From the sequence record NC_001901.1: 46,375 bases of DNA. One strand, given 5' to 3'. Below are positions 19,507-20,045 of this stretch, piece by piece. The translations under genes and the position numbers were made by a program. How positions within the stretch are numbered: the stretch's first letter is position 1; the number at the start of each line of letters is the position of its first letter. The notes beneath the pieces were generated by a model. The model saw only the letters and a program-made list of their open reading frames with translations. It was not told where the DNA came from and searched no databases. Origin of the DNA: Escherichia phage N15.

Positions 19507-19617
19507 TTGATCGTTATTATCGATTGATTAATGAATATCTATATACCTTATTGGCTATTATTGGCATCGTAATACTGTTATTGTTTATAAACTTATATTT
19601 ACGGGGAATTTTCAAAA

Positions 19618-19854
19618 ATGGGAAAAACCATTATTGCCATTGGATTTTCGTTATTACTTTCTGGATGCTCAGGTATGCTCGAAAAGCAGTCTCCAGTGTG
19701 TACTGGCACAGCTTTGATAGGTGGTCAGGAAACAGAAGTTCAAATTTACAGCATTCGTAAGCAAAACAATCAGACTATGTATCGAGCTGGCTATCCGTTC
19801 AATTGGCAGTGGGTTGGGAAAAATAACTTTATTTCAACCACGTGTGGCACCTAA
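19618..19854 (+). CDS. cor: Cor-type lipoprotein (FhuA-dependent superinfection exclusion)
   Basis: Lipobox LLLSGC in MGKTIIAIGFSLLLSGCSG. 78 aa, on a low-GC island downstream of the J-like gene. Cor of N15/phi80 is known at this position. Confidence 0.8.
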   Translation: MGKTIIAIGFSLLLSGCSGMLEKQSPVCTGTALIGGQETEVQIYSIRKQNNQTMYRAGYPFNWQWVGKNNFISTTCGT

Positions 19855-20023
19855 ATTTGTTATTAAAAATGCTATAAGGTAGCATTATGTCGCTGTTGTG
19901 AATCCACCTATGCGGATGGGCGTACAGCTGAGCTATCTCTGATGAGATCGTAAACGAGACCGCGGACTCTTTGGCTGGAGAGTTCACTGGGAGGCACCCA
20001 GCACAACAGCAACCAATTACAAA

Positions 20024-20045
20024 CCCTGCTTCGGCAGGGTTTTTT
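20024..20045 (+). terminator. Rho-independent terminator upstream of the side tail fibre gene
   Basis: CCCTGC-ttcg-GCAGGG followed by T6. Confidence 0.8.

Follow-up and report, generated by a model that had tools for sequence, protein, structure and literature searches.

The 46,375-nucleotide (nt) stretch of DNA from Escherichia phage N15 analyzed here (NC_001901.1; hereinafter, the window) carries, in front of the side tail-fibre gene, the cor gene encoding a 78-amino-acid (aa) exclusion lipoprotein, immediately followed by a structured non-coding RNA, which we identify as a divergent member of the STnc100 family (Rfam RF02076). Both cor and the RNA are of known kinds; the novelty lies in the divergent STnc100 clade as such and in its position downstream of cor, among the tail genes, and the pairing of cor and STnc100 at one site seems to have been undescribed before. 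Most likely, the RNA is both the 3' untranslated region (3'UTR) of the cor mRNA and a separate transcript. The explanation taken as a whole, that is, a cor–STnc100 cassette with an internal promoter and an Hfq-associated, trans-acting RNA, we propose with moderate confidence.

The RNA downstream of cor belongs to the STnc100 family

The Rfam scan yielded a match to RF02076 at positions 19863-20048 of the plus strand, covering the full model (model positions 1-206) with 72.5 bits and E = 2.4e-15, the gathering threshold of the family being 47 bits. The compared loci are denoted by L-numbers, L001 being phage ES18 and L004, phage phi80. The same threshold is passed by the cor-linked RNAs of L128, L022, L054, L131, L208, L094, and Erwinia phage 49. 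We also collected STnc100 copies from IMG/VR using the motif of the 5' hairpin, which gave at least 120 loci with 100 distinct cores; all copies re-tested with the Rfam model proved to be STnc100, with scores of 56-194 bits.

A prototype-like copy is situated 75 nt downstream of stxB2 in phage 933W (207.7 bits), with the AsxR antisense RNA just beyond it. The linker of this copy, EcOnc27 of Tree et al. (PMC4104026), is exactly reverse-complementary to the Northern probe used in that study. The family is known as EcOnc27 in O157 Sakai and as sRNA103 in EDL933, and is present in multiple copies in Salmonella LT2 and in prophages of enterohaemorrhagic Escherichia coli. In EDL933, 11 STnc100 copies are transcribed, one of them being Northern-positive (PMC5331693).

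The window RNA is also more structured than expected by chance. The 158-nt RNA has the minimum free energy (MFE) of -60.3 kcal/mol, compared to -43.6 +/- 3.6 kcal/mol for shuffled sequences (z = -4.63; none of the 200 shuffles was as good), and the MFE fold of the window RNA taken alone has the same architecture as the family consensus (Table 1). We aligned 56 non-redundant STnc100 copies and analyzed the alignment both by RNAalifold and by an explicit count of pairs. The consensus comprises 25 pairs in five helices, with 95.8% of cells paired, as opposed to 37-51% in the control where the partners were slid by 1-3 columns. Both sides have changed in 11 pairs, and the observed covariation score was reached in none of 500 shuffles. 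Helix P1 is formed by GUUGUG/CACAAC or GCUGUG/CACAGC in the cor clade and by GUGGUG/CACCAC in most copies; similarly, one pair of P2 is A-U in the cor clade and C-G in most copies. Since the 5' hairpin was the search pattern of the IMG/VR scan, its invariance in the alignment is partly due to construction. The segment UCACCGGGAGGCACCCGGCAC, comprising the P5 hairpin and its flanks, is nearly invariant in the 56 copies and lies outside the search pattern.

Thus, an earlier sequence-only reading of the window, which proposed a structured non-coding tail of about 150 nt ending in a terminator, was correct in this respect, as follows from the Rfam match, the folding energy, and the covariation. 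All the sequence features it listed were also found, within 1 nt of the positions it gave. The covariation analysis with phi80 that it suggested tells nothing about the RNA, which is absent from that phage. The annotation of the window should be changed accordingly, positions 19892-20048 being labelled as an STnc100-family non-coding RNA rather than as intergenic.

Between P1 and the terminator, the MFE fold leaves a sole free segment, the linker AACCAAUUAC, whose sequence is partly conserved among the cor-linked copies and bears no relation to that of other clades, and which may be regarded as a candidate target-recognition or Hfq-contact segment. The terminator has a 9-bp stem with the UUCG loop (20021-20042) followed by a U run, and is orthologous to the terminator situated directly after cor in phi80 and in L178, a locus without the RNA.

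The insert in helix P3 (19923-19960) contains, at 19939-19955, CUGAUGAG..GUAAAC, resembling the strings of the hammerhead core, without stem II. A hammerhead was rejected: relaxing the cut-off to E <= 10 yielded no match to any ribozyme family, and Erwinia phage 49 and L054 do not retain the motif. The likeness is probably a coincidence.

Table 1. Features of the cor–STnc100 region (window coordinates; RBS, ribosome-binding site; sRNA, small RNA).
Feature	Position	Strand	Description and evidence
Intergenic region, AT-rich	19507..19617	+	GC content ~0.3; degenerate GATC palindromes; cor RBS GGGGA ~10 nt 5' of ATG
cor, 78-aa exclusion lipoprotein	19618..19854	+	Signal peptide, lipobox LSGC, Cys17; NF047972, PHROG 1119, synteny
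Putative internal sigma-70 promoter	19857..19885	+	-35 TTGTTA (19857-19862), spacer 17 nt, -10 TAGCAT (19880-19885); predicted start ~19892
STnc100-family sRNA, ~155 nt	19892..20048	+	RF02076, MFE fold, covariation; also the 3' end of cor mRNA
Helix P1	19892-19900/20002-20010	+	MFE fold and covariation
Helix P2	19904-19908/19914-19919	+	MFE fold and covariation
Helix P3	19920-19922/19961-19963	+	Encloses the hairpin 19932-19951
Helix P4, GGACUCUUU/GGAGAGUUC	19964-19972/19977-19985	+	MFE fold and covariation
Helix P5, CUGGG-AGGCA-CCCAG	19987-19991/19997-20001	+	MFE fold and covariation
Single-stranded linker AACCAAUUAC between P1 and the terminator	20011..20020	+	Unpaired in the MFE and centroid folds
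Intrinsic terminator of cor mRNA and the sRNA	20021..20048	+	AAACCCUGC-UUCG-GCAGGGUUU, then UUUAUU
RBS of the side tail-fibre gene, ATTGCC..AAGGAGG, and ATG (20066)	20049..20068	+	Right boundary; same with and without the RNA

The RNA is inserted behind cor and moves with it

We surveyed the 80 best Cor relatives in IMG/VR and found the RNA in 10 of them, always directly downstream of cor. The gap between cor and the next gene is 43-63 nt in the 64 loci without the RNA and mostly 167-211 nt in the loci with it (86 nt in one locus). In the RNA-less loci, a spacer of about 20 nt (~17 nt in L178) separates the stop codon of cor from the terminator, after which come ATTGCCC..AAGGAG..ATG of the same fibre gene. 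In the window, 166 nt are found where the RNA-less loci hold the short spacer, and the boundaries are exact. Phages phi80 and LAU1 have the short form, with no match to STnc100. The RNA is thus situated between the cor stop codon and the terminator shared with its RNA-less relatives. The Cor proteins encoded next to the RNA have a common C-terminal signature, NWQWV..NNF, which suggests that they form a single lineage.

The cassette behaves as a mobile unit. In L213 and L214, the upstream tail genes are 5% diverged from the window and the fibre gene is different; the 559-nt cassette, from the intergenic region to the fibre RBS, differs from the window by 0-3 nt. There are no differences over 211 nt among relatives with 5%-diverged flanks, and in L128, the closest relative, the body of the RNA is identical to that in the window. 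In ES18, cor and the RNA are inverted as a unit relative to the J-gp30-gp31 tail operon; this copy has lost its terminator and scores 33.5 bits, below the Rfam threshold. The region thus has the traits of a moron, namely, deviant GC content, its own terminator, and mobility as a unit (L213, L214, and the ES18 inversion).

Two observations concern the edges of the cassette. In ES18 (cassette at 2733-3150), the RNA ends in half of the terminator stem (AAAACUCGCC) abutting the stop codon of gp31, hence the breakpoint lies inside the terminator. The comparison of L213, L214, and L215 with window positions 20066-21354 demonstrates identical cor–RNA cassettes followed by different fibre genes with products of 390-470 aa, one of these having the Phage_tail_C_2 domain instead of Peptidase_S74. 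As identical cassettes carry different fibres, the terminator–RBS junction looks like a recombination joint for fibre swapping.

In the family as a whole, about 9 of the 125 motif copies follow cor. The remaining ones follow the Q antiterminator or StxB, precede holins, or neighbour a transposase gene or a tellurite-resistance moron; in other words, most copies occupy the PR' moron site between Q and S, described by Tree et al. (PMC4104026), and others lie beside other cargo genes. In E. coli genomes we observed no copy of the cor–RNA clade, cor matches there ending at the gene, and one scan of 185,579 species-representative genomes produced a single copy, of a different variant, in Pseudocitrobacter vendiensis. 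The exact Cor protein of the window was found on at least 24 metagenome or assembly contigs. Some viral contigs contain clustered copies: six matches in ~4.2 kb in L014 (4349-8555), an isrI match among them, three matches in ~650 nt in L120 (3093-3739), and further clusters in L016 (7149-7610) and L008 (1121-1794). The sRNA module thus forms arrays in these contigs.

The RNA as the 3' end of the cor mRNA and a probable separate transcript

The sequence-only reading had offered a choice between the 3'UTR of cor and an independent sRNA. The two are not exclusive, and most likely both hold. The terminator scan found no terminator between cor and the RNA, therefore the cor transcripts must carry the RNA as their 3' end, and a positionally conserved internal promoter probably adds a separate transcript. 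This promoter, TTGTTA-17-TAGCAT in the first 30 nt past the cor stop codon, is weak and would probably yield a separate primary transcript from ~19892; the layout would then be that of an sRNA gene lying within a 3'UTR and driven by an internal promoter.

In the window, ES18, L022, Erwinia phage 49, and L054, the -10 box ends 12 nt before GUGAAUCC and the spacer length is 17 nt, the spacer sequences having diverged; in L128, the -10 box is TAGAAT, better than TAGCAT of the window. In the family-wide survey, we considered the best pair of -35 and -10 boxes at a fixed distance from the GUGAAUCC motif in 91 distinct copies. A promoter with a match of at least 9 of 12 was observed at the fixed place in 59% of the copies, compared to 1.7% at control offsets. 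Besides, in 36 of the 125 copies, the ~260 nt in front of the motif contain no end of a same-strand open reading frame (ORF) of 45 aa or more, and a chromatin immunoprecipitation-exonuclease (ChIP-exo) signal of RpoD is reported at the LT2 copies (PMC10794520). All these observations argue against the alternative that the RNA is nothing but a part of the 3'UTR, transcribed solely within the cor mRNA with no promoter of its own, and acting in cis, by stabilizing the 3' end of the mRNA or recruiting Hfq, or else released by RNase E as a type II sRNA.

We consider this alternative rather unlikely, but of the competing explanations it survives best. It is consistent with the absence of a terminator in front of the RNA and with the habit of the family to trail cargo genes (stx1B, stx2B, cor), and it is further supported by several facts weighing against a separate transcript. 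The window promoter matches the consensus in just 8 of 12 positions, a level reached by 12% of the control positions, and the scanner did not report it. Within the cor clade, L131, L208, and L094 form a sub-branch that keeps the RNA without the promoter hexamers, hence the promoter is not required to maintain the RNA. EcOnc27, the sole family member with mapped data, is ~235-247 nt, and its Hfq peak begins 45 nt before the conserved 5' motif; provided that the published coordinates are valid for the Sakai record in its current form, it is thus longer than the 174-nt transcript from the promoter to the terminator. Thus, the hexamers noted in the sequence-only reading are present and positionally conserved in most of the cor clade, but their match is weak, and they are absent from one sub-branch. 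Weighing both sides, we lean modestly towards an independent promoter for the window copy.

In L131, L208, and L094, Cor is 4-5 residues longer at the C-terminus (..TTCADPENH, ..TCGSPDK). The RNA there starts only ~20-27 nt after the stop codon, therefore the cor frame covers the position of the -35 box in the other members of the clade.

The sequence-only reading also listed a four-codon ORF, ATGTCGCTGTTGTGA (ATG TCG CTG TTG TGA, 19887-19901). Its ATG is replaced by ATA in L128 and is missing in ES18. We discarded this candidate, as it is not conserved and is situated upstream of the predicted transcript start.

Possible function of the RNA

The predicted fold of the RNA consists of a closed five-helix domain, a 10-nt single-stranded linker, and the terminator with its U tail. 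To judge by EcOnc27 and the PasD sRNAs, the RNA would most likely regulate targets in trans in the lysogen, in association with Hfq, the conserved helices presumably serving as a scaffold and the clade-specific unpaired segments (the linker and the P3 insert) recognizing the targets. EcOnc27 has an Hfq crosslink peak and is seen as bands of ~235 and 247 nt, the longer one being destabilized in the absence of hfq (PMC4104026, Table S2). PasD is described as Hfq-dependent, with many mRNA partners in RNA interaction by ligation and sequencing (RIL-seq) (PMC8550237), and the PasD sRNAs are presented as a structural homologue of STnc100 (bioRxiv 10.64898/2026.05.13.724894, PMC8550237). Expression, with binding or stabilization by Hfq, is known for other copies, namely, EcOnc27, STnc100_4, and PasD. 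An Hfq-associated trans-acting sRNA is the best-supported mechanism at the level of the family, and by analogy it is the most likely one for the window copy. A link to CsrA, considered because of a 2026 preprint naming PasD, was rejected; PasD occurs there only twice.

The search for targets, which yielded none, weighs against a trans-acting role. With E. coli as the host proxy, pairing of the linker with the fhuA leader (-150 to +90) was at chance, 0.17-0.30 of shuffles being as good; strong pairing with this leader is thus excluded, and we rejected the fhuA mRNA as a target. The duplex of the linker with GcvB (-16.4 kcal/mol) was marginal, with 5% of shuffles as good and 8% for a longer segment. 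The window RNA does have CACAACA in common with the mimic of the GcvB target in AgvB, but this string sits in the 3' strand of helix P1. Given the marginal duplex, the poor conservation of the linker in the clade, and the burial of CACAACA in P1, an AgvB-like anti-GcvB sponge was rejected as well. Exact complements in the phage genome do not exceed 11 nt, compared to 11-12 nt for shuffles, and a target inside the phage was dismissed. The whole-molecule cofold energies were uninformative.

The near invariance of UCACCGGGAGGCACCCGGCAC outside the search pattern could also mean that the conserved five-helix domain mainly binds or titrates a protein or the ribosome, as a decoy or a guide, base pairing being secondary. 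The closed multi-helix fold is indeed unusually elaborate for an sRNA of the seed type, the P5 stem-loop contains GGGAGG resembling the Shine–Dalgarno sequence, and several EDL933 copies have the ratio of ribosome footprints to transcripts above 1 (PMC5331693). At the same time, Hfq is the sole protein partner reported, PasD has mRNA partners in RIL-seq, and the invariant hairpins are equally well explained as determinants for Hfq or an RNase. Hence we regard this possibility as improbable.

The position of the element directly upstream of the tail-fibre gene, the terminator ending 20 nt before the fibre RBS, could suggest that it controls this gene as a 5' leader or attenuator whose terminator is a regulated switch. 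This is very unlikely, since phi80, LAU1, and 64 other loci have the same terminator–RBS junction without the RNA, the RNA is also found convergent with its neighbours or in front of unrelated genes, the inversion in ES18 has turned it away from the fibre gene, and no pairing competing with the terminator is seen in the MFE or centroid fold. A decaying, non-functional STnc100 remnant hitch-hiking with cor would agree with the state of the ES18 copy and with the rarity of the clade (one match among the species-representative genomes), yet it is hardly credible, as all helices of the window RNA are intact, P1 and P2 are kept paired by the compensatory changes of the cor clade, and the 211 nt compared are unchanged next to diverged flanks.

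Beyond the preferred explanation, an Hfq-associated regulator embedded in the cor transcript, one may speculate that STnc100 is a portable, programmable 3'-end cassette of prophage cargo, with an invariant scaffold, which may bind a protein or the ribosome, and a swappable unpaired segment, the cor clade being the dedicated partner of Cor. We see this generalization as a long shot. If it held, the cor-clade RNA would retune the expression of the host envelope or iron-uptake genes, offsetting the loss of FhuA function or reinforcing exclusion.

The low-GC island and the cor gene

The base composition agrees with the claim of the sequence-only reading about a low-GC island: the GC content is 0.315 at 19500-19699 and ~0.40 at 19600-19899, compared to ~0.50 in the flanks. 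The GC content of the STnc100-family RNA itself is 0.48.

The ORF at 19618-19854 encodes a protein with the N-terminus MGKTIIAIGFSLLLSGCSG, whose signal peptide MGKTIIAIGFSLLLSG, as read from the sequence, directly precedes the C of the lipobox LSGC, with Ser at position +2. Its assignment to the Cor type, made in the same reading, was well founded: the protein matches the NCBIfam equivalog NF047972 'phage exclusion lipoprotein Cor' (lamb_exclu_cor) with 134.5 bits against the cut-off of 31 bits, over residues 1-76 of 78, and PHROG 1119 (Cor) with E = 3.4e-32; in Pfam, no model was found for this 78-aa protein. The context is that of lambdoid tail genes, the order of the neighbours being J (PHROG 31), PHROG 557 (labelled 'outer membrane protein'), PHROG 425 ('membrane associated protein'), cor, and the tail-fibre gene, the latter matching PHROG 1980 and carrying the Peptidase_S74 chaperone domain of Pfam. 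The same order, J-gp22-gp23-cor-fibre, is observed in phi80, N15-like phages, Erwinia phage 49, and LAU1.

Inactivation of FhuA, exclusion of FhuA-dependent phages, protection from colicin M, and a block of ferrichrome uptake have been reported for the Cor proteins of phi80, N15, and HK022 (Uc-Mass 2004, cited in PMC3594210). By analogy, Cor of the window would block FhuA-dependent infection in lysogens. The cassette would thus combine two known parts, an outer-membrane-directed lipoprotein inactivating FhuA and an STnc100 RNA.

The promoter of cor itself did not emerge from the sequence: there is no sigma-70 match of at least 9 of 12 within 19507-19617, and the scanner found one promoter-like site compared to 2.0 expected, that is, no excess. 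The hexamer TTGGCA, proposed in the sequence-only reading as part of a promoter, is present at 19561-19566, but it reads ATGGAA in L128, and it is not accompanied by an adequate -10 box; we rejected it as the cor promoter. Indirect support for a promoter of cor comes from ES18, where the cassette runs opposite to the tail operon and hence cannot depend on the late transcript.

In most cor phages, the stop codon of the gp23-like gene is directly followed by two conserved palindromes, TTGATCG-N7-CGATCAA and AATTGATC..GATCAATT, which contain 3-4 GATC sites; a conserved block GTTGTTATTGTTTA..CATGAATA lies between the palindromes and the cor RBS. We compared the window (19504-19530), phi80 (2348-2405), L005, L131, L132, L172, L175, and L208; the window and L128 hold only degenerate palindromes. 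The conserved elements may control cor as operators, as sites sensitive to Dam, or as RNA hairpins.

Elsewhere on the minus strand of the window, two adjacent matches exceed the Rfam thresholds, the C4 antisense RNA at 28301-28388 (78.8 bits) and isrK at 28414-28489 (62.4 bits). The pair resembles the antisense-controlled antirepressor (immI-like) module of the P1/P7 type, and the same pair occurs in L113, a contig of the Stx1 type.

Significance and comparison with known systems

STnc100 is among the most widespread families of prophage RNAs, with 11 copies in EDL933, one of them beside stx2. The cor clade is a simple natural system, having a single copy, a single small cargo gene, and an easy phenotype, that is, resistance to FhuA-dependent phages and colicin M. 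It also provides natural variants that differ in the presence of the RNA, in that of the internal promoter, and in orientation. Hence it would make it easy to ask whether STnc100 RNAs work in cis, for the cargo gene in front of them, or in trans.

The window Cor shares the equivalog family, the lipobox, and the J-gp22-gp23-cor-fibre synteny with Cor of phi80, N15, HK022, and mEp167. It differs from Cor of phi80 by the C-terminus of its sub-lineage, NWQWVGKNNF, and the DNA of cor is ~70% identical to that of phi80 over 158 alignable nt. Unlike the window, cor of the phi80 type has no RNA between the stop codon and the terminator.

The window RNA has the same five helices, GUGAAUCC-hairpin, CCGGGAGGCACCCGG hairpin, and intrinsic terminator as STnc100/EcOnc27, and a similar prophage placement after a cargo gene. 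However, it is divergent (72.5 bits compared to 208 bits for the stx2 copy) and shorter, its P1 has been rewritten by compensatory changes, and its P3 insert and linker differ from those of other STnc100 RNAs. It is situated after cor in the tail region rather than at the PR' Q-S site, and, unlike the stx2 copy, it has no convergent AsxR or AgvB partner.

PasD1 and PasD2 of enteropathogenic E. coli E2348/69 are prophage-encoded and Hfq-dependent, and are reported to be structurally homologous to STnc100. They have another seed and another sequence, and adjoin the genes of sialate esterase and lysis.

IpeX, encoded downstream of nmpC in DLP12, and the anti-sRNAs AgvB and AsxR resemble the window RNA in being small RNAs at prophage moron sites beside cargo, but are not homologous to it. 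Indeed, no STnc100 match was found in the nmpC/ipeX region of DLP12 in K-12, so homology with IpeX was rejected, and AgvB and AsxR had no Rfam match within the window.

Finally, sRNAs embedded in 3'UTRs are of two types, type I having their own promoter (DapZ, MicL) and type II being processed from the mRNA (CpxQ, SroC). As in these sRNAs, the terminator of the window RNA is common with the upstream mRNA, and the putative promoter lies at or just past the end of the coding sequence, although some relatives in the cor clade appear to lack it. The difference is in the origin: unlike the type I and type II sRNAs, the window RNA is a horizontally mobile module inserted behind a gene, and has not evolved from the 3'UTR of that gene.

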